The notes under the pieces are model-generated. The model was not told the origin of the DNA, ran no database searches, and worked only from the letters and a program-made list of their open reading frames with translations. From a virus, in the UHGV virus genome UHGV-2156197: a stretch of DNA of 40,124 bases, one strand, 5' to 3'. A program made the position numbers and the translations under genes. This document shows, piece after piece, positions 1,683 to 36,616 of the stretch (positions are counted from its first letter, which is position 1; each line of letters starts with the position of its first letter).

Positions 1683-1703
1683 GGATATCTCCTGAATTCA
1701 GAT

Positions 1704-1737
1704 AATAAAAAACCCGCCGGAGCGGGTTGTTTTTTGG
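1704..1737 (-). terminator. rho-independent terminator downstream of the lipoprotein gene
   Basis: Hairpin AACCCGC-CGGA-GCGGGTT (1711-1728) flanked by A-run on plus and T-run 1729-1737; read on minus strand gives stem plus TTTTTATTATC. Confidence 0.55.
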
Positions 1738-1744
1738 TAAGGCA

Positions 1745-1981
1745 TTAAGAGCAATTCGAACGGGTGAAGTTATTTTTATTCACCCATCGCCAGTTAAATG
1801 GATAACCGGCTCTGTACTCAGTCTGATTTGCAACTTTTCGTACACCGTAAATCTGCACTGACTGGGGCAGCCCACCAACCACTAACTCAGCCTGACAAAC
1901 AGGTTTCTGTTTCTCCAGAACAGGTCCTGAACATGCTGAAAGCACCAGACAGGCAATAACTGGAATAATTATATTTTTCAT
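1745..1981 (-). CDS. small lipoprotein, possible Cor-like superinfection-exclusion protein
   Basis: 78 aa; signal peptide with lipobox LSAC-S; sits between host-range genes and tail fibre; AT-rich upstream region. Cor assignment is inference from size and position only. Confidence 0.6.
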   Translation of the reverse strand: MKNIIIPVIACLVLSACSGPVLEKQKPVCQAELVVGGLPQSVQIYGVRKVANQTEYRAGYPFNWRWVNKNNFTRSNCS

Positions 1982-2089
1982 TTCGACACCAGAGTTAATT
2001 ATTTAAACAAAAAATAACCAATGGCATTGAATAATAAAAATAGTTTTAATAGATCAATATTCTTAAATTGATCGTTTAAATCGATCGGT

Positions 2090-2764
2090 TTAATCATATG
2101 CGGCTGTGTTTATCGCCGTTATTACAATCCCGCTATTCGTCGTTCCGACTGAAGAACCACTTGCTGTTGTTGATGAAAGTCCTTTTATTCTTGTTCCTAC
2201 ACCTTCATTGAAGCACCCCGTTCCCACATCCACAGGCTGGATTATTGGTTGTCCGCCAGGTGCTGAACCAGCATGCAGAAGAACAGACCCCAGCCCCATC
2301 GGATTTACGGCCCATTTGCCTGCCATGTATGTATCGATGTTAAGCCCACCCGTTGCAGCGCCGGGTGAGCCTATAGTTGTAAGGTCGCTTAATACCCGGG
2401 ACTCATTCGTAAGTACCAGTGTCCCTTCGGCATCCCATATAGCCACACCCCAGGCAGGAAGGGTGAGCGGATATATAGCAAAAAAATACGCCTCCAGCAC
2501 GAAAGCCGAACCTCTGTAATTAGACGCATCAACACTGAACGTGTTGCCACTTTTTGAAGCTGATATCTTCGCCGGGGCGCTGGTTCGTGCAAATGCAATC
2601 CCTCCCTTCTGACCGTCGACAGTCACGGACGCCGAAGCACTGTTAAAATCCCCTCCAAAAGTTGAGTTTACAGTGACTTTCCGGTAAAGCGTCATTGGTG
2701 TGGAATCAGGCGTGATAAAAGGGTTCCCGTTAGGTAATGAAATCAATGCGCCATATTTAGCCAT
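2090..2764 (-). CDS. hypothetical tail-associated protein
   Basis: 224 aa, ATG start, tightly packed directly after the upstream gene in the host-range module downstream of J. Confidence 0.55.
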   Translation of the reverse strand: MAKYGALISLPNGNPFITPDSTPMTLYRKVTVNSTFGGDFNSASASVTVDGQKGGIAFARTSAPAKISASKSGNTFSVDASNYRGSAFVLEAYFFAIYPLTLPAWGVAIWDAEGTLVLTNESRVLSDLTTIGSPGAATGGLNIDTYMAGKWAVNPMGLGSVLLHAGSAPGGQPIIQPVDVGTGCFNEGVGTRIKGLSSTTASGSSVGTTNSGIVITAINTAAYD

Positions 2765-3082
2765 CTACGCAGTCTCCGCAAAAACGATTAACTGCACTTT
2801 GACTGCCGGGTAATCATTAATCCCATCACTACCTGAAGGCTGTATTGTTATGGTGTTTCCAGATGCAATAATGCTTCTTTTGTCTGTATAACTTATTGTC
2901 CCTTTATCCTCCAGAGTACCAACCGCAAAACCAACCTTTAAACCAGGCTCCAGACTGAACTGGTAGCTTCCCGTTTTCTGACCTAAAGCAAGATCGATGA
3001 TACCCACCACGGTTACAGGTTTAATGCCATAGTTATTCGGGACGCCGTTAGTGTCCCATGAGGCAAATCCAAAATCAGACAT
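2765..3082 (-). CDS. hypothetical tail-associated protein
   Basis: 105 aa, ATG start overlapping the J stop by 8 bp (coupled). Confidence 0.5.
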   Translation of the reverse strand: MSDFGFASWDTNGVPNNYGIKPVTVVGIIDLALGQKTGSYQFSLEPGLKVGFAVGTLEDKGTISYTDKRSIIASGNTITIQPSGSDGINDYPAVKVQLIVFAETA

Positions 3083-6000
3083 TGGGAGCCACTCCTGTTA
3101 GTTTACCAATCTGCACAAGCACACGACCTTCCGGCCCCGTAAAGGAAAGATTGTTGTCGGCTTTAGAAAGACACCACCCCCCCTGATTTGCAACTTTGTA
3201 ACCTTCTGACCAGATAGAACCTGAGATTTTCGCATTGTTGATTGCGGCGTTAGCAATTTTGGCGCTTGTTATACTTCCATTCTGAATAAACGCATCGCTG
3301 ATAAACACCTGACCATTAACAACAGCAAAGGGTGAATATTGCGTATCACCGCTGCCACTCATCAGGACGAACTGGTTTGCGTTAAACCCGACACGAGTGA
3401 CCACTGGCTTACCCGCTTCGGCCAGCACCGCGATCGACATCCCGGCGTTATACATCACACCGTTTATTCGAACTCCGGTTTTAAGGGTGTAAATTGCAGA
3501 TGCCCCGGTCGCATCAACCACGGCGGTGAGCTTATCTTCCAGCGCAGCAGTCACATCATTGAACTGCGCCTGCACCTGCGTCGACATTTCAGCCATGGCC
3601 TTATCGACCTGCGCAATGGTCGTTTTAACCACCAGAATATCCGCGCGTACCTCGCCGTACTGCGCCCACTGGTGTTCCACGGTTGCATGGTTGGCCAGCG
3701 CGTTCTGCAATGCGGCTTCAAGATTGGTATCAATGTCGCCGGTCAGGCGGTCACCGTCGGCAGATGTCAGGAAGTCATCAGCAATATCGCCCAGGTAGTC
3801 GTCAGCATTCGCATTAGATTCACCACGAACCCAGTCGGTCCACCCTGATTCATTACCCGTTCTGTCTACCAGCTGCGCGCGGTACCAGAACTCCTGACCA
3901 GCCTTCAAACCCAGTTGGGTGTATTCGGCAGACGGATAAGGCACATCCGACAACAAAAGGGGATTTGAGAAATCACTGTTCGCGGTGTACTGAATTTCCG
4001 TTTTCAGCGTGTCCCCGGTATTAGCCGGGAATCCCCAGTTCAGGCGAATCCCCCAGTTGATCGGCGTTGTCGCAAAGCCGACAGGTTTCGGCGGATTTCC
4101 CACCTTGCCCGTCAGCGTTTTCTCTTCGGAGTAGCCCCAGCCAGAGGAAATTTCAGAGGCATTAATAGCGCGCACACGCACGAGGTAGCGCCCGGCATAA
4201 ATACCCGATACATCAAATGACGTGGTGGAGCTGCGCGGCACGTTAACCCAGTTCCCGTCGTTGCGGCGCCATTGCGCTTCATAGGCGATAGCGTTCTGCG
4301 CCTGGTCCCAGCTCACGCGCATCGTTTCGACGCTAATATTCTGCTGCACCACTGAAAAGGAGCTGATCACGATGTTCGCAGGCGGCGACTGGTTACCCGG
4401 CGGGATCACACTCACCGGCCGCTGGTCAATGATGGCTCCGGTATCAATACGGGCATATTTATCCGGATCGTGCCATGCGCCAGTAATCGAGAAGGTACCA
4501 TCATTGTTATCGGAGACACTGACAACACGATACTGCTGGGCGTAGAGTTCATCTGACTCAACCACCCATACAGCTTCGGCCTGTGGTGTCTCACTGTATG
4601 CCGTGGTGACTGTGACTGATTCCCCGTTAACCGCCTGAATAGTCCTGCTCTGTGACGCACCGGAGGGAAGATTGAGAATAAGGCGATCGCCTGCTGCTGC
4701 ATCAGCTACGCGGTCAAGTTTAATCACGCGACCGTTAACAGCACTGATGCGGCCGCCCATAACTTTGCCGGACAGAAGCTCGTCTGACACGGCGATGATG
4801 TATCCCGGCTGCGGAATGTTTCCGTCCAGGCCAACATCAAACGAAACAACGCGATCCTTGTTGTTGGTGAGAATACCCCAGCGCCCCTTTCGGTTCGCTT
4901 CTGATTGCCTGGTACAGCCGATGGCTGTCATTTCCAGCTGATTAAATCCGTACCGGGCCACCAGAGGCTGCTCAAACACCGGCTCCATCGCATCTGCATA
5001 GGCGTTACCCGGATCAGACCAGGAAACCAGCGCCGTGGTATACCGCGTTTTTGTCGTGCTGCTGGAATAGGTAAAGCGTCCGTCGATAACGTTAGCGCGG
5101 GTGTAAGCGTAATCCACATCTCTCGGCATATCGGCAAGCGCAACAATCTGATCACCGCCCCAGTAGGTCATGCCACGGAAGATAGCAGCAAAATCACGCA
5201 GGACTGTGTAAGCGTCGTTTCGGTCCTGAATGTACACGTTGCAGGTATAACGTGGTTCGGTACCGTTGCCCCCTTTGCCGTCTAGCACCATCTGATCACA
5301 ATACTGGGCAACCTGATAAAGCGTCCATTTATCGATGTTAGCGGCAGTCAAACGGTGACCGAGGCCGAACCGGTCAGAAACAACCAGATCGTAAAAAATC
5401 CACGCAGGGTTATCCGTCCATGCCCACTTAAACGCACCGGTCCATGTACCGCTATAAATACGGGTTTCAGGGTCGTAGGTATCTGGAACGCGGATAACAC
5501 GACCGCGGGGCTCGCAGGAGATCTGCGGGATAGAACCGTTAAACTGGCTGGAATCGAATTCGATGTAGAGTAACGCTGTGTTTGGATAGCGTAACTTGGC
5601 GTCAATCACCTCAGTGAAGCTCTGCAGCGTCATCGTGTCGCCGATCTTCGCGCTGTTGGCGTCAGAGGTTATCTTACGCAGGCGGATTGTCCAGGTGCTT
5701 CCAACCTGCGGTAAATCAATACGGTGGCTGCGCTCGTAACCAGACGTTGTTTTTCCGGTCACGCTGGTATTGAGTACCGTCTGCCATGCGCCGCCGCCCG
5801 TCTGCAGGTCAATCGCATAATTGACCGAGTAACCGACCAGATCACCGTCGTCCTCCTGTTTGAAAAGCGATGGCCATTTCAGACGCAGGCGAACTGCCGA
5901 AAGCTGCGTATTGGTAAACGTTCGCGTCCAGGCTGTGGCGCTTGATACCTCAGTTCCCACGCTGATTTCGTTTTCGGTACCGGGAATACCCTGAATATAC

Positions 6001-6251
6001 TTTTGCGCCTGCGTTCCCGCGCGAAACTCCCACGTCACGCCGCTGAAGTTTTGGGAGCCATCGGCGTTCTCCAGCGCCGTTCCGTCCAGGTAGATATCTT
6101 TGCCGGTTAATTGTCCTGCAAATTCACCTTCGCCAAGCGCAACGAGGATTTTGGCTTTCGCTACAGATTGCAGATCATCAGGCTGTTCGGTAGGGGTTCT
6201 GGAACTGGAGCTGCCGCCCTTGCGGCCCTTTAACACTTTTTCTTTAGCCAT
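3075..6251 (-). CDS. J: host specificity / central tail fibre protein J
   Basis: 1058 aa; long-range similarity to lambda gpJ as recalled (e.g. YPNTAL, NPAW-FYD, YCDQ-V-DG-GG-EPR-TCN blocks). Confidence 0.9.
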   Translation of the reverse strand: MAKEKVLKGRKGGSSSSRTPTEQPDDLQSVAKAKILVALGEGEFAGQLTGKDIYLDGTALENADGSQNFSGVTWEFRAGTQAQKYIQGIPGTENEISVGTEVSSATAWTRTFTNTQLSAVRLRLKWPSLFKQEDDGDLVGYSVNYAIDLQTGGGAWQTVLNTSVTGKTTSGYERSHRIDLPQVGSTWTIRLRKITSDANSAKIGDTMTLQSFTEVIDAKLRYPNTALLYIEFDSSQFNGSIPQISCEPRGRVIRVPDTYDPETRIYSGTWTGAFKWAWTDNPAWIFYDLVVSDRFGLGHRLTAANIDKWTLYQVAQYCDQMVLDGKGGNGTEPRYTCNVYIQDRNDAYTVLRDFAAIFRGMTYWGGDQIVALADMPRDVDYAYTRANVIDGRFTYSSSTTKTRYTTALVSWSDPGNAYADAMEPVFEQPLVARYGFNQLEMTAIGCTRQSEANRKGRWGILTNNKDRVVSFDVGLDGNIPQPGYIIAVSDELLSGKVMGGRISAVNGRVIKLDRVADAAAGDRLILNLPSGASQSRTIQAVNGESVTVTTAYSETPQAEAVWVVESDELYAQQYRVVSVSDNNDGTFSITGAWHDPDKYARIDTGAIIDQRPVSVIPPGNQSPPANIVISSFSVVQQNISVETMRVSWDQAQNAIAYEAQWRRNDGNWVNVPRSSTTSFDVSGIYAGRYLVRVRAINASEISSGWGYSEEKTLTGKVGNPPKPVGFATTPINWGIRLNWGFPANTGDTLKTEIQYTANSDFSNPLLLSDVPYPSAEYTQLGLKAGQEFWYRAQLVDRTGNESGWTDWVRGESNANADDYLGDIADDFLTSADGDRLTGDIDTNLEAALQNALANHATVEHQWAQYGEVRADILVVKTTIAQVDKAMAEMSTQVQAQFNDVTAALEDKLTAVVDATGASAIYTLKTGVRINGVMYNAGMSIAVLAEAGKPVVTRVGFNANQFVLMSGSGDTQYSPFAVVNGQVFISDAFIQNGSITSAKIANAAINNAKISGSIWSEGYKVANQGGWCLSKADNNLSFTGPEGRVLVQIGKLTGVAPNV

Positions 6252-28171: not shown

Positions 28172-28558
28172 TCAGGCGGCTGCACCCGCCGGTTCATATC
28201 TGCTGATCGTTATCTCTACCCGACCTTTCGGCACAACGGGTCCCCATTCCACCAGCATGCGCTTAATCTGGCTGTCGTCTTCCCAGACACCCGCATGCGT
28301 CAGCGCGTCAAACAGGGCTTTGTTGTAATTATCGATATCCCGACGGCGCGCATCCGGCGGGTACAGAGTGATTTCTACCGCTGCCAGTTCAGTCGATGGC
28401 TTCGGGAGACGTCGTAATTGCTCAATGATCGCCACGCAGGCAGCGCTCTGGTATTTACGACCATCAGCGCTAATGAGGTGACGACCGGCCAGCGGCCCCT
28501 TGTTAGGGGCGCGCCAGTAAGTGTTCACGCTCGGAGGGAACGGGAGCACAAGTTTCAT
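28172..28558 (-). CDS. rusA: crossover junction endodeoxyribonuclease RusA
   Basis: MKLVLPFPPSVNTYWR...RRDIDNYNKALFDALTHAGVWEDDSQI matches the RusA family; AGGAGGTG SD before ATG 28558. Confidence 0.85.
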   Translation of the reverse strand: MKLVLPFPPSVNTYWRAPNKGPLAGRHLISADGRKYQSAACVAIIEQLRRLPKPSTELAAVEITLYPPDARRRDIDNYNKALFDALTHAGVWEDDSQIKRMLVEWGPVVPKGRVEITISRYEPAGAAA

Positions 28559-30489
28559 GCCACCTCCTGCTGTTGCACTGCACACAGTTCCGGAAGATTT
28601 GCCTCAACCAGCGCCCGGGCGAATGGTGGTGGTACCGCATTACCGCAGCGGGCTACCTGCTTATCTTTTGCATAGCGATTTCCACGGTAGTCCTGATCAA
28701 TAACGTAACCATCCGGGAAGCCCTGCGCTTTGTAGAGTTCATGCGGCTGCAACATGCGCATTCCGATATCAACGATCTGGTATTTAACCCCATCGATCGT
28801 TACCAGCCATTCATCGTCACTTTCCCCGCAATACGTCTCGAGAAATGTGCGTACCTCACCCACGTGTTGGCCACCAGCAGTGATTGTTGGCATTGGCACA
28901 TCAAGGCGTTGCCCGTCGCGGCATGTTCCACGCAGTTTCACCAGATGAGAGGCAACTACCGCATGATGGTCGACAGTGGTCACTGAATGCGCGGGTTCAT
29001 CCATACTGACACCCGGCCCCGTATAGTTACCGCCGTAGTGTTTCGCCAGGAATGCGCTCACCGTCGCAAATTTATTTCCGCCTGCAGTAACGGTCCCCAG
29101 CGGGTTATCCAGTCGCAGCACACGCGGTTCTTGTCCAGGTCGTTCGCCATAACCCATCTGAATCAGCGTAGGCGTTACCAGTTGAGATTTACCGCCACCA
29201 CCAGCGGTGATGGTTGCGCTCGGTTCGTCTGCACGGTGGCCGACGCTGGCCCCAAACTGGCGGGCTATCACTGGCGCAACAAGACAGGCTCGGGATTGCT
29301 TCAGAATGGTATGAGCAGGTTTATTCAGCGGGCGCGGTTTAGCCTGGTATTCACTACCACCATTACCCGCCAGGAATGGTGTCAATGCAGCCTCAACAAT
29401 CCCGAGAGCATGCCCGTTCCCGCCCGGGCGTTTTGACGTGCCAGCGGTTACCGTCGGAACAGGTTCGGTAACGGGCTGCCCGGTTGCGCCAGTGCGGAAT
29501 TTTGTAAGGTGTGGAACGGCTAACGCGTAGCCGAGTTTTTTAGTAATGGTCTGTAATGGCTCATTCAGTGACTGTCCGCGAAAAGCGTCATACGCATTTT
29601 TTGAGCTCGTGTGGTTGCACTTCACGATAAACGGCGACGCACTTTCGATAACAAAGCGCTGTATGCCGCGTGCGATCCGCTTCAGAGTGTTCTCTGCCAG
29701 CGGTTTTTTGCGGTCGAAGATGGACAGAGCCGGAACATTCCAGTCGATACATTCCGCAGCGGTACGCCATGGCATCAGCCTGCCGCTCTGCACCTCCAGT
29801 GACTTGGGATCCCCATGGGTTACAACAGGCCACTGAATAGGGCAACCATCGCAGCGCATAACCATGAAGAAGCGTTTGCGGATCGTCGGCGCGCCGTAAT
29901 CACACGCGCGCAGTTCGCGATAATCAACATCATATCCAAGCCCTTCCACCAGCTGTTTGGCCTGCGTGCTGCCAGGATCAATAGCAAGAAATTCGCAGAC
30001 CTCCGCCAGTGCCGGGTGATCGGCAGGAATGCCAGTGGAAAGCATGCCGACAAAAGCATTGAATGTTTCGCCAGTGCGGGCAGGGTCTGGACGCATTTCA
30101 TCGGCCAGCAGCGGTCCCCACGTTTTAAACTCTTCCACGTTCTCCAGCATCATCACGCGCGGTCGCTTCGCCAGTGCCCAACGCAGAACGATCCAGGCCA
30201 GACCGCGTATCTCTTTTTTCACAGGCTTTGCGCCTTTGGCCTTTGAGAAGTGTCGGCAGTCCGGGCTAAACCATGCCAGGCCAACAGGATTGCCGCCGGT
30301 GGCGGCTACCGGATCCACGTCAAATACGGATTCACAGTAATGCAGTGTGTCAGGGTGGTTCGTCTTGTGCATCGCAATGGCGTTTTCGTCGTGGTTGATC
30401 GCAATATCCACGCTGCGTCCGATCGCCAGTTCAATACCCGTTGATGCACCACCGCCACCAGCAAAGTTATCAACGATAATCTCACGCAT
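28555..30489 (-). CDS. DNA (cytosine-5)-methyltransferase, unusually long, with repeated target-recognition-like segments
   Basis: 644 aa; motif I FAGGGG, motif IV SPDCRHFS, motif VI ENV, motif X GNAV; four TxTAGG repeats in the variable region. Confidence 0.85.
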   Translation of the reverse strand: MREIIVDNFAGGGGASTGIELAIGRSVDIAINHDENAIAMHKTNHPDTLHYCESVFDVDPVAATGGNPVGLAWFSPDCRHFSKAKGAKPVKKEIRGLAWIVLRWALAKRPRVMMLENVEEFKTWGPLLADEMRPDPARTGETFNAFVGMLSTGIPADHPALAEVCEFLAIDPGSTQAKQLVEGLGYDVDYRELRACDYGAPTIRKRFFMVMRCDGCPIQWPVVTHGDPKSLEVQSGRLMPWRTAAECIDWNVPALSIFDRKKPLAENTLKRIARGIQRFVIESASPFIVKCNHTSSKNAYDAFRGQSLNEPLQTITKKLGYALAVPHLTKFRTGATGQPVTEPVPTVTAGTSKRPGGNGHALGIVEAALTPFLAGNGGSEYQAKPRPLNKPAHTILKQSRACLVAPVIARQFGASVGHRADEPSATITAGGGGKSQLVTPTLIQMGYGERPGQEPRVLRLDNPLGTVTAGGNKFATVSAFLAKHYGGNYTGPGVSMDEPAHSVTTVDHHAVVASHLVKLRGTCRDGQRLDVPMPTITAGGQHVGEVRTFLETYCGESDDEWLVTIDGVKYQIVDIGMRMLQPHELYKAQGFPDGYVIDQDYRGNRYAKDKQVARCGNAVPPPFARALVEANLPELCAVQQQEVA

Positions 30490-31363
30490 GGGTTACCCCC
30501 TGCATGCTGCCAACAAGACCACGCGCAATTGTGATAATTTCGCTGGTGGCCGTTCGTTCCAGCCAGAGTTGATTGATGTTGGCTTTCAGTTTGTTCTGCT
30601 GGGCCTCGCTCAATACATCAACGCCTTCCACCTGGTTAAACACCAGACCAACCTCGAGAGGCCAAATTCGTGACTCAGTTTCCGGTGTTGCTGCTGGTTC
30701 CTTAGCTGCCTGCATTGCAATTGTTTGCTCTTTACCAACGGCGAATTGAGCCAAAGCCATAAACGCCCGCCCTTTTTCTTCCAGTTCGGTACGGCTGATG
30801 TAGCTGAAACGCTCTCCGCGCCATGACTTATCAAAGATTGCAATAGCACCAGCAAAGAAAGCACCAGTGGGCTTCTGCTTATCATCAGCAGGAACAAACC
30901 ACACAGGGAGATCGAAGCCAATACGACCGCGGATAAACATGATGTGATCGGCATCTTCCGGCCACCATGTTTCACTTGTCGCCGCTTTAATGAGGAACAC
31001 GTAACGCCCACTCTTTTCACGCATTTCCATTGTGCGATCCATGATGTGGGTCATGCCGGTTATCGCCTGTTTCTCGTGGTACTGCGAACGGCTATATGGT
31101 GGATTACCGAATGCGGCCCCGCCGATTGATTCCAGCATTTCCGCCCAATCTTGTACCAGCGCGTTATCTTCGGCGGTGTACCACACAGGGCACTTAGCGT
31201 TATCGTCATCAGCAAAGAGATCCAGCGTCAGCGGGCCGAACATCGCATTAATGCCCCAAAAAAGCAGGTCCGGTGTCCGCCACTGATCGCCAACTTCTTT
31301 CAATTCGTGGGCTGGTTGGCTACGTAGTGCCACCAGCGCCTGGCAATATTTGTTTAACGTCAT
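30482..31363 (-). CDS. phage-type DNA N6-adenine methyltransferase (Dam family)
   Basis: 293 aa; WRTPDLLF and GNPPY motifs; about 100-aa C-terminal extension. Confidence 0.75.
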   Translation of the reverse strand: MTLNKYCQALVALRSQPAHELKEVGDQWRTPDLLFWGINAMFGPLTLDLFADDDNAKCPVWYTAEDNALVQDWAEMLESIGGAAFGNPPYSRSQYHEKQAITGMTHIMDRTMEMREKSGRYVFLIKAATSETWWPEDADHIMFIRGRIGFDLPVWFVPADDKQKPTGAFFAGAIAIFDKSWRGERFSYISRTELEEKGRAFMALAQFAVGKEQTIAMQAAKEPAATPETESRIWPLEVGLVFNQVEGVDVLSEAQQNKLKANINQLWLERTATSEIITIARGLVGSMQGVTHA

Positions 31364-35777: not shown

Positions 35778-36548
35778 ATGTCTCAGTTAGACAGCGGTAC
35801 ATTTCAGCAGGTAAAAGACCTGGTCCTTTCTGGCTACCACCTGAATGATATTCATGGCCTGGCTTGCCCGACCGCATTGCTGCCAGATGGTACTAGCGTT
35901 GAAAGCCTTGAGCGCTTTTCTCTGGAGCGTTTCCGCTTCCGTGGTGCAATGACAACAACCAGTATTGACGATTTCGCACGTTATTCTAAAGGTTACGCCA
36001 GCGACAGTGAGCCAGCACGTTGCTTCATTGACGCTGACAACATGACCGCCCGTTCAGTGTTCAACATCGGCAACCTGGATAATCCCGGTCACGCCGATAA
36101 CGTTGCTTCGATCACCCTGAAGAAAACCGCGCCCTTCCGCGCGTTACTGCAGATCGATGGTCAACGTCTGAAGCAAAAGCAAATCGCCGAATGGCTGGAA
36201 GACTGGAGCGATTACCTGCTGGCGTTTGATGCTGATGGCAATACGATGCAGATTTCCCAGGCAGCTCAGGCTGTGCGTCGTATCACTATTCAGCAAGCAA
36301 CCCAGCAGGACCATGAAACTGGTGATTTCGCTGGTAAAAAATCGCTGATGCAAAGCGTTGAAGCAAGCAGCAAAGACGTAATGCCTGTGGCGTTTGAATT
36401 CAAATGTGTGCCGTATGAAGGTCTGGGCGAACGACGTTTTAGCTTGCGTAACAGCCTGCTGACCAGCGATGAACCCGCTTTGTTCTGCGCATCGTCCAAC
36501 TTGAAGCCCAGGAAGAAGAGATCGCCAATGAATTCCGCGATCTGCTGA
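35778..36548 (+). CDS. DUF2303 / YfdQ-like protein, C-terminus apparently frame-disrupted
   Basis: 256 aa in the track frame; a more protein-like C-terminus ([33 protein letters not shown]) continues in another frame to a stop at 36602-36604. Confidence 0.7.
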
Positions 36549-36616
36549 TCAGCAAGTTCGACGGTGAATCAGTGGAAACTTTCATCGGTAACTTTAAAGC
36601 CTAATTGCTCTGCATT

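Follow-up and report, generated by a model that had tools for sequence, protein, structure and literature searches.

A conserved OxyR-like site with three GATCs ahead of the prophage exclusion gene cor: a candidate Dam-sensitive switch

The phage genome UHGV-2156197 carries, in the open reading frame (ORF) at 1745-1981, a gene that by its sequence is a member of the cor family and encodes a phage-exclusion lipoprotein. Between cor and the gene that precedes it lies a 47-base-pair (bp) element with three GATCs which resembles the binding sites of the host regulator OxyR and is conserved ahead of most cor genes that we collected, and it is likely that this upstream region forms a Dam-sensitive, OxyR-controlled promoter. 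All coordinates given here are positions in the window, the whole stretch of 40,124 nucleotides (nt) that was analysed, which has a guanine-plus-cytosine (GC) content of 51.6%. The region in question is part of the tail module of a lambdoid, N15/HK022-like prophage and is encoded on the minus strand. Its genes and features are, in window order:

588-1682: tail-fibre gene with an S74 chaperone domain, the next gene after the cor terminator
1701-1728, minus strand: intrinsic terminator 3' of cor, with its stem at 1711-1728, from a terminator scan and folding
1745-1981, minus strand: cor, 78-amino-acid (aa) phage-exclusion lipoprotein of the Cor family (PHROG 1119)
1982-2089: intergenic gap upstream of cor, 108 bp with 24.1% GC, from the phrog_425 stop codon to the cor ATG
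1987-1990, minus strand: weak Shine-Dalgarno-like GGTG, 5 nt before the ATG, read from the sequence
2011-2018, minus strand: predicted -10 hexamer TATTTT (2011-2016) with a conserved G at -14 (2018)
2034-2039, minus strand: predicted -35 region TTTTAT, weak
2040-2086, minus strand: predicted 47-bp OxyR-like site GATCGATTTAAACGATCAATTTAAGAATATTGATCTATTAAAACTAT, holding all three GATCs
2040-2054, minus strand: proximal half-site C, ATCTATTAAAACTAT, its start overlapping GATC3 (2052-2055), centred at about -43
2071-2085, minus strand: distal half-site A, ATCGATTTAAACGAT, flanked by GATC1 (2083-2086) and GATC2 (2070-2073), centred at about -74
2090-2764, minus strand: phrog_425 gene, 'membrane associated protein', N15 gp23-like (PHROG 425, E 5e-54)
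2765-3082, minus strand: small phrog_557 gene between the J-like gene and the phrog_425 gene
3075-6251, minus strand: J-like tail-tip gene, the first in the local gene order

The slot of cor within the order J, phrog_557, phrog_425, cor, terminator and tail fibre is the same in HK225, mEp390, N15 and phi80, where it is annotated including the gap and the terminator. A sequence-only reading of this DNA had placed a 78-aa lipoprotein in a Cor-like position, and this assignment is borne out by the PHROG 1119 match, the lipobox and the conserved gene slot. The match to PHROG 1119 (Cor superinfection exclusion protein) covers the full length of the protein (residues 1-78, E 1.3e-25), and the protein is 95% identical to Citrobacter proteins designated 'phage exclusion lipoprotein Cor' by NCBI, a name which is also carried by many of the 101 Cor homologues that we collected. 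In the alignment of Cor proteins 21 columns are invariant, including the lipobox cysteine, and Cys29 and Cys77 are conserved. By eye, the signal peptide MKNIIIPVIACLVLSAC is followed by Ser at +2 of the lipobox LSAC, which occupies residues 14-17 (1931-1942); no Pfam model matches the lipoprotein or the two genes upstream of it. By tblastn the identity to phi80 Cor is 54.5%, and it ranges from 54.5 to 55.8% across the Cor proteins of phi80 and N15. The Cor proteins of phi80, N15, HK022 and mEp167 share 55-58% identity, the lipoprotein features, the genomic slot and the terminator with the present one, which differs from them as a Citrobacter-type variant; phi80 cor, in addition, is preceded by an identical upstream cassette. 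These four Cor proteins inactivate FhuA, and in lysogens Cor confers protection from FhuA-dependent phages and colicin M and lowers ferrichrome uptake (PMC3594210, PMC11436027).

A terminator of its own 3' of cor, as likewise claimed beforehand, was found by the scan at 1711-1728. Its stem comprises 7 pairs, 5 of them GC, followed by a T run (-13.2 kcal/mol, z -2.47), and a terminator is annotated at the same place in HK225, mEp390, phi80 and N15. The hairpin at 1701-1728 has T runs on both strands, and the scan calls a terminator in both directions. The segment 1701-2089 has a GC content of 38%, compared with 48-54% in the flanking genes. Such small autonomous units, or morons, are typically AT-rich and carry their own promoter and terminator (PMC3594210); the cor unit has a conserved -10, a terminator and a deviating composition, its promoter activity being predicted. 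In the lysogen cor would be autonomous, and it would, in addition, be read within the late operon during lytic growth.

The three GATCs start at 2052, 2070 and 2083 within the 108-bp AT-rich gap, in agreement with the sequence-only reading, and GATC1 lies 3 nt behind the stop codon of the phrog_425 gene. The short direct repeat that had been described there is present in the form of two 13-bp units on the plus strand (TTAAATTGATC and TTAAATCGATC), but a dyad, GATCG-N7-CGATC, is the more fitting description of the arrangement; in the relative L108 there is one 13-bp unit more. By itself the cluster is mildly unusual and not decisive. Composition-preserving shuffles of the AT-rich gap yielded at least three GATCs in 267 of 200,000 cases (about 0.001), and the whole window contains three GATC triplets spanning no more than 31 bp, where 0.6 are expected and 2% of simulations reach three. 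The two other triplets lie at 785/791/805 in the tail-fibre gene (785-808) and at 36520/36539/36547 at the 3' end of a DUF2303 gene (36520-36550). They were considered as further sites of the cor kind and set aside, as their spacing is different and neither is among the top OxyR-consensus scores. The cluster statistics thus remain indecisive when taken alone, and it is the conservation across relatives that puts the GATC cluster beyond chance.

The protein that probably recognizes the site is OxyR, which the sequence-only reading had not named. Every position of the window was scored on both strands for a pair of OxyR consensus half-sites at offsets of 22, 31 and 32 bp. The top score of the window, 16 out of 20, is at 2040-2086, and the second, 15 out of 20, falls on the same place, the best unrelated place reaching 14. 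Read in the direction of cor the site is GATCGATTTAAACGATC-AATTTAAGAATATT-GATCTATTAAAACTAT, and 8 of the 10 positions of the OxyR half-site consensus ATAGnTnnnAnCTAT are matched by each of the half-sites A and C, two 15-mers which are offset by 31 bp. In GATC1 and GATC3 the G falls outside these 15-mers; in GATC2 it is position 13 of half-site A, where the consensus is mismatched in any case. The 22-bp register, that of oxidised OxyR, scores 15 out of 20, and its left arm is without conservation; binding in this register is a minor possibility, as judged from the sequence.

To follow the element through related loci, cor genes were gathered by protein similarity, independently of the upstream DNA, from one genome per species (28 loci), from IMG/VR (160 loci) and from cultured phages. 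Of the first 101 loci, 90 have the arrangement GATC-N9-GATC-N14-GATC at positions of about -105/-92/-74 relative to the cor ATG, and it occurs in 126 of 142 distinct cor upstream sequences (about 89%). It is found in Citrobacter, Enterobacter, Phytobacter, Siccibacter, Kluyvera, Pseudocitrobacter, Rahnella and Buttiauxella, and also in the Escherichia coli (E. coli) phages phi80, HK225 and mEp390. As far as is known, Dam and OxyR are general in Enterobacterales. For a conservation profile, the upstream sequences were reduced to 31 clusters with less than 80% identity. Among these, the 47-bp site is 76% identical in pairwise comparison, as against 38% for the downstream columns outside the promoter. 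In the distal half-site the columns specified by the consensus hold 1.98 bits, compared with 0.95 bits in its n columns; the corresponding values for the proximal half-site are 1.79 and 0.92 bits, and spacer and flanks hold 0.26-0.51 bits. The conserved columns outside the GATCs are those of the OxyR consensus, namely G4, T6, A10 and C12, as well as T13/A14/T15 in the proximal half-site, so that the conservation profile follows the OxyR consensus column by column and beyond the GATCs. Since site and flanks differ to this extent between diverged clusters, purifying selection rather than shared descent is indicated for the 47-bp element. The suggestion that the GATC cluster is regulatory accordingly gains in weight, as the cluster keeps its position and spacing in about 89% of the cor upstream regions and lies inside an OxyR-like site.

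This profile also bears on two other accounts of the region. According to the first, cor has an ordinary constitutive moron promoter and is uniformly expressed, the GATCs being kept for an UP element, for DNA curvature or by hitch-hiking with a recently spread cassette. The low GC content of 1701-2089 is what would be expected of a moron (PMC3594210), and the triplets in the tail-fibre and DUF2303 genes illustrate that meaningless GATC triplets do occur in this window. However, the GATCs stay invariant where the flanks have dropped to 38% identity, the information follows the OxyR consensus, the best OxyR match of the window falls precisely on the site, and three or more GATCs are rarely reached by composition in the shuffled gap; we regard a merely constitutive promoter as very improbable. 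According to the second, the GATC dyads are read by another factor, such as a different LysR-type regulator, SeqA or a phage-carried protein, so that the region would be regulatory and possibly Dam-sensitive, and independent of OxyR. ATC-N9-GAT is indeed an instance of the generic T-N11-A dyad of LysR-type regulators; the distance between GATC1 and GATC3 is 31 bp, or about three helical turns, which would place them on one face of the double helix, as SeqA prefers. SeqA and HU are ancillary factors at opvAB (PMC4856963), and GATC methylation hinders binding of HdfR at std (PMC6735912). Against this stand the conserved columns outside the GATCs, which match the OxyR consensus and which SeqA would leave unexplained, the high similarity to three proven OxyR sites, and the fact that the cassette is found in a large number of unrelated phage backgrounds and also in front of unrelated genes, which points to a conserved host factor. 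A reader other than OxyR therefore appears improbable, if somewhat less so than a constitutive promoter.

The promoter, whose conserved -10 the sequence-only reading had not noted, was placed by conservation. In all of the 31 diverged clusters a TAnnnT hexamer follows exactly 70 nt after the G of GATC1, and in 29 of them a G stands two bases before it (+68); the columns beside the hexamer hold about 0.3 bits, and there is hardly any conservation in the 20 nt before and after it. This predicts a cor promoter with an extended -10 G, a start near 2004, 7 nt beyond the hexamer, and a 23-nt leader. Counted from the predicted start, the GATCs lie at about -82, -69 and -51 and the site extends from about -82 to -36. 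A scan with the consensus promoter returned 3 weak hits where 1.4 are expected. Its hits, among them ATGCCA-18-AATAAT on the minus strand and one on the plus strand inside cor, were dropped in favour of the invariant TAnnnT at +70 because neither of them is conserved in the relatives. Two further candidates were rejected as well. A TTGATC at GATC3 could be taken as a -35, but the spacing to a downstream TAnnnT varies between 12 and 18 nt, and none is present in the HK225 type. A TATGAT at the end of the phrog_425 gene is reminiscent of the -10 of agn43; it encodes, however, a conserved C-terminal Tyr-Asp, and it was rejected because synonymous TATGAC variants occur, which destroy the critical last T.

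A comparison with established switches supports the assignment to OxyR and also exposes where cor departs from each of them. To our knowledge, only few loci have been experimentally established as Dam/OxyR switches, namely agn43, gtr operons, opvAB and Mu mom. At gtr and agn43, OxyR no longer binds once Dam has methylated the site, and OxyR that is bound keeps methylation from taking place (PMC2909390), and the same mutual exclusion is found at opvAB (PMC4856963). By sequence, paired half-sites with GATCs within or overlapping them, the marks of such a switch, are both present at cor, in an arrangement as in agn43 and mom. The site of agn43 (flu, in the E. coli CP4-44 prophage) is closest: as at cor, there is one OxyR site of two half-sites with three GATCs, one of which edges one half-site and two of which flank the other, and the E. 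coli K-12 sequence ATAGAATAAAACGATCAATATCTATTTTATCGATCGTTTATATCGATC and the cor site in reverse complement are identical at 37 of 47 positions with one 1-nt gap. In contrast to cor, where the site is upstream of the predicted -10, the site of agn43 is found downstream of the -10, and OxyR acts there purely as a repressor. Furthermore, the orientation relative to the gene is opposite, the GATC spacing is 18/13 in cor and 19/13 in agn43, and the product of agn43 is an autotransporter adhesin rather than an exclusion lipoprotein.

Mu mom is likewise a phage gene with half-sites upstream of the promoter. Its three GATCs have the same 18/13 spacing as those of cor and its half-sites the same offset of 31 bp, and the two sites are identical at 27 of 47 positions, shuffled cor sites giving a mean of 13.6 and a maximum of 26. 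The mom site differs in its reversed orientation to the gene, and mom is a late lytic gene whereas cor is a gene of lysogenic conversion. The mom site also lies further upstream, and mom needs the activator C in addition. Mu mom is not known to phase-vary, and OxyR (MomR) represses there as it does at agn43 (PMC2909390). The gtrABC locus of P22 resembles cor in being a lysogenic-conversion locus of a prophage that alters the cell surface and phage susceptibility, and its half-sites A and C, ATTGATCGGTAACAACGATCAAT and ATTGATCGCTTGTATCGATCAAA (form TTGATCGnTnnnAnCGATCAA), nearly match half-site A of cor. There, three half-sites are spaced by 32 bp and four GATCs occur in two pairs, so that OxyR can occupy an activating position, AB, or a repressing one, BC; cor has two half-sites and three GATCs and thus only one OxyR position. 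At P22 gtr OxyR can activate, and the repressing half-site C is centred at about -38, with GATC3 and GATC4 at -46 and -33 (PMC2909390). In opvAB of Salmonella, OxyR is essential for expression, the half-sites OBSC and OBSD are centred at -75 and -43, and OBSD abuts the -35 (PMC4856963). This is the geometry of about -74/-43 predicted for cor; unlike cor, opvAB has four half-sites and four GATCs, OxyR alternates between non-adjacent pairs, and the products set the length of the O-antigen. The opvAB output is a trade-off involving phage resistance (PMC4652898). As far as the sequence goes, cor may be regarded as a further case of a known kind of switch, with a new class of output gene.

Natural variants of the cassette are informative with respect to its function, since GATC-loss variants can be regarded as natural 'locked' forms. 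In phages of the HK75, HK633, HK542, HK544, mEp234 and mEpX1 type (L296-L304) GATC2 alone is kept; in the HK75/HK633/mEp234 clade GATC1 and GATC3 have been lost by single changes (GATT, TATC) at positions that the consensus leaves unscored. N15 (L236) retains only GATC1, and its promoter region is shortened and degenerate. Among the remaining variants (L244, L246, L070, L100, L107, L108 and L026/L027) the changes consist in the loss of a single GATC, in a deletion of 31 bp between GATC1 and GATC3 or in a 13-bp duplication: GATC1 has become GATA in L246, which creates the ATAG that is also present in L026/L027, and ATCT has become ATAT in L100 and L108. In ES18 (L003) cor points the other way from the tail genes and no GATC lies upstream of it, and the virulent phage T1 (L238) and the Stx2-converting phage 86 (L239) have cor without the cassette. 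In these few examples the switch goes along with the phi80/HK225 gene arrangement.

As to the direction in which OxyR would act at cor, we slightly favour a mode in which OxyR bound to the unmethylated site activates and methylation turns cor off. The position of the half-sites at -74/-43 corresponds to that of OBSC/OBSD in opvAB, the repressing half-site of gtr being about 5 bp closer; the -35 of cor is weak; and the variants that have lost GATCs keep or even improve the positions of the OxyR consensus, their cor ORFs all being intact. In the opposite mode, OxyR on the unmethylated site would repress a constitutive extended -10 promoter and methylation would relieve this repression. Incoming methylated DNA and most dam+ lysogens would then be cor-ON, and rare unmethylated, OxyR-bound lineages would be OFF and regain the receptor. 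The site is, after all, closest to that of agn43 and has the GATC spacing of Mu mom, both loci at which OxyR represses. The G at -14 together with the A/T-rich upstream sequence suggests a promoter that can work free of an activator, the T1 resistance of phi80 lysogens (PMC2885432) would fit a default ON state, and the Dam-family enzyme of the phage would strengthen ON upon induction. Yet with its end at about -36 the site leaves the -10 and +1 uncovered, unlike that of agn43, and its geometry is the activating one of opvAB and not that of the repressing gtr half-site at -38. Variants without GATCs that have a good match to OxyR would, moreover, be locked OFF if OxyR repressed, and yet cor is intact in them, including cultured cor+ coliphages. 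Repression is in our view unlikely, although clearly less so than the two other accounts above.

Several points speak against a Dam/OxyR switch at cor or against activation as its mode. The offset of the half-sites is 31 bp and not the 32 bp of agn43, gtr and opvAB, a spacing that is called canonical for reduced OxyR in the gtr and opvAB papers (PMC2909390, PMC4856963); the offset of Mu mom is also 31 bp. Promoter and start were placed from conservation alone, and a shift by a few bp would put the proximal half-site on the -35 and turn the predicted direction round. The G at -14 hints that the extended -10 promoter may have no need of an activator, and at Mu mom OxyR represses from an upstream site, as it represses at agn43, the most similar site (PMC2909390). 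Some functional cor phages (ES18, T1, Stx2-86 and N15) are wholly or partly without the cassette, so the switch is not needed for Cor function. The resistance to T1 that is described for classical phi80 lysogens (PMC2885432) would be unexpected if OFF cells were common. Finally, we infer from the sequence all of the following at cor: OxyR binding, sensitivity to methylation, the promoter position, bistability and direction. A full-text literature search, which took in reviews of morons, superinfection exclusion, Dam epigenetics and Salmonella prophages, returned no statement tying cor to Dam, OxyR or phase variation, an older mention still being possible.

With OxyR as activator, the system might be pictured as follows. 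The LysR-type OxyR of the host would bind the single target of two half-sites ahead of the cor promoter; by analogy with agn43, mom, gtr and opvAB, methylation of the GATCs would bar OxyR, and bound OxyR would bar Dam. Because binding and methylation exclude each other, each state would perpetuate itself after replication, and the lysogen population would split into heritable cor-ON and cor-OFF lineages. In the prophage, all cor mRNA would come from the switch promoter, and at the terminator the transcript would be halted ahead of the tail-fibre gene; in lytic growth the late operon would yield cor transcripts as well. In ON cells Cor, as an outer-membrane lipoprotein, would inactivate the FhuA-type receptor and thereby block superinfecting phages and colicin M. 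By analogy with these systems, the receptor block by Cor is probably expressed in only part of the host population, and as Cor protects but lowers ferrichrome uptake, such variable expression could serve as a bet-hedge.

The N6-adenine methyltransferase that the sequence-only reading attributed to the phage is indeed encoded, but it is probably not the methylase that matters in the lysogen:

30482-31363, minus strand: Dam-family N6-adenine methyltransferase (PF05869, E 5e-44), between the replication gene and Q

As the driver of the switch this enzyme was rejected, since the early region is inferred to be silent, that is repressed, in the lysogen, where host Dam would suffice. Directly downstream of it, within 28555-31363 on the minus strand, is the gene for a protein of 644 aa, at the N-terminus of which there is a C5-cytosine methylase domain (PF00145); the two methylase genes belong to the early region, with the replication gene on one side of them and an antirepressor-like gene on the other.

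The cassette is not confined to cor. A scan of IMG/VR for the three-GATC site alone gave at least 120 places, and among the matches listed most precede cor. The site with TAnnnT at +70 is, however, also found before unrelated small prophage genes (L180, in reverse complement with the motif at 6181, and also L119, L120, L163, L135/L170/L184/L196, L118/L123 and L173/L141). The product of one of these genes is 115 aa long, is secreted and has a TonB C-terminal domain (PF03544, E 2e-15); it is possibly a TonB decoy that would put TonB-dependent receptors out of action as well. Others encode three related single-pass membrane proteins of about 95 aa and a two-pass one of 65 aa, membrane proteins without Pfam matches. 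The same site also precedes a Ner-like HTH_35 gene (PF13693), with the TAnnnT one base later (+71), and two acidic proteins of about 49 aa, where no TAnnnT hexamer is present at +69 to +71. Because it precedes unrelated genes, the cassette should depend on a conserved host factor and not on a phage-specific protein. Its reuse before other small envelope genes suggests, at the level of sequence, a broader and so far unrecognised set of epigenetically switched prophage genes.

Taken together, we tentatively propose, with considerable reservation as to the whole, that a portable Dam/OxyR cassette of about 80 bp, with the three-GATC site 23 bp ahead of the -10, has spread among temperate phages of Enterobacterales, renders exclusion by Cor phase-variable, phi80 included, and has been reused for other envelope-directed prophage genes, OxyR activating from a single methylation-sensitive site. 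If so, prophages would impose an epigenetic bet-hedge on TonB-dependent receptors, in which resistance to phages and colicins is set against siderophore uptake, and activation by OxyR from a single site would be an arrangement undescribed for agn43, mom, gtr or opvAB. With cor among the Dam/OxyR switches, a widespread prophage defence, the block of FhuA-type receptors, would be heterogeneously expressed, which would explain how lysogens reconcile resistance to phages and colicin M with the cost in ferrichrome uptake; gtr and opvAB hedge alike with regard to O-antigen-dependent phages. This would bear on exclusion phenotypes, on escape in phage therapy and on receptor availability in Citrobacter, Enterobacter, Escherichia and related genera. 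Phage phi80, with its identical cassette, offers a classical system for direct testing.

In a second group of IMG/VR matches (L129, L131, L136, L160, L166, L169, L174, L177, L179, L181, L187, L207 and others) the site directly follows a terminator. Here there is no -10 at +70, and about 500 nt free of ORFs extend downstream, followed by small genes (MSDSKEQTDWYDIVRRSDG... and MAQLQLIKQSSGILIPATPE...); the site in this setting could drive a small RNA or work in the opposite orientation.

As to the relatives of the present phage, a megablast with 1600-2200 gave no match in the phage collection or the E. coli genomes, and only a sensitive blastn hit HK225 and mEp390, at about 65% identity. Citrobacter is the source of the nearest proteins, and its prophages are the nearest relatives. 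Over about 690 aligned residues the J-like tail-tip protein has 84% identity to HK225 gp21, but the last 45 residues or so differ (window 3075-3200). Because of this divergence the receptor-binding tip, and possibly the receptor too, may differ from those of the E. coli phages. Past the tail-fibre gene, at the other end of the region, a DinI gene is located on the opposite strand.

A 1.2-kb contig (L019) binned into a Mucilaginibacter metagenome-assembled genome holds a cor of the enterobacterial type with the cassette, which is probably a binning artefact. Cassette and cor of the phi80 type occur in 49 of 5,426 complete E. coli genomes. The assembly of one laboratory strain (H101), E. coli 'XL10-gold-ultracompetent' (NZ_CP081008.1, 1859297-1859667), is 100% identical to phi80 in cassette and cor; this brings to mind that phi80/Lula has reportedly spread in laboratory strains.

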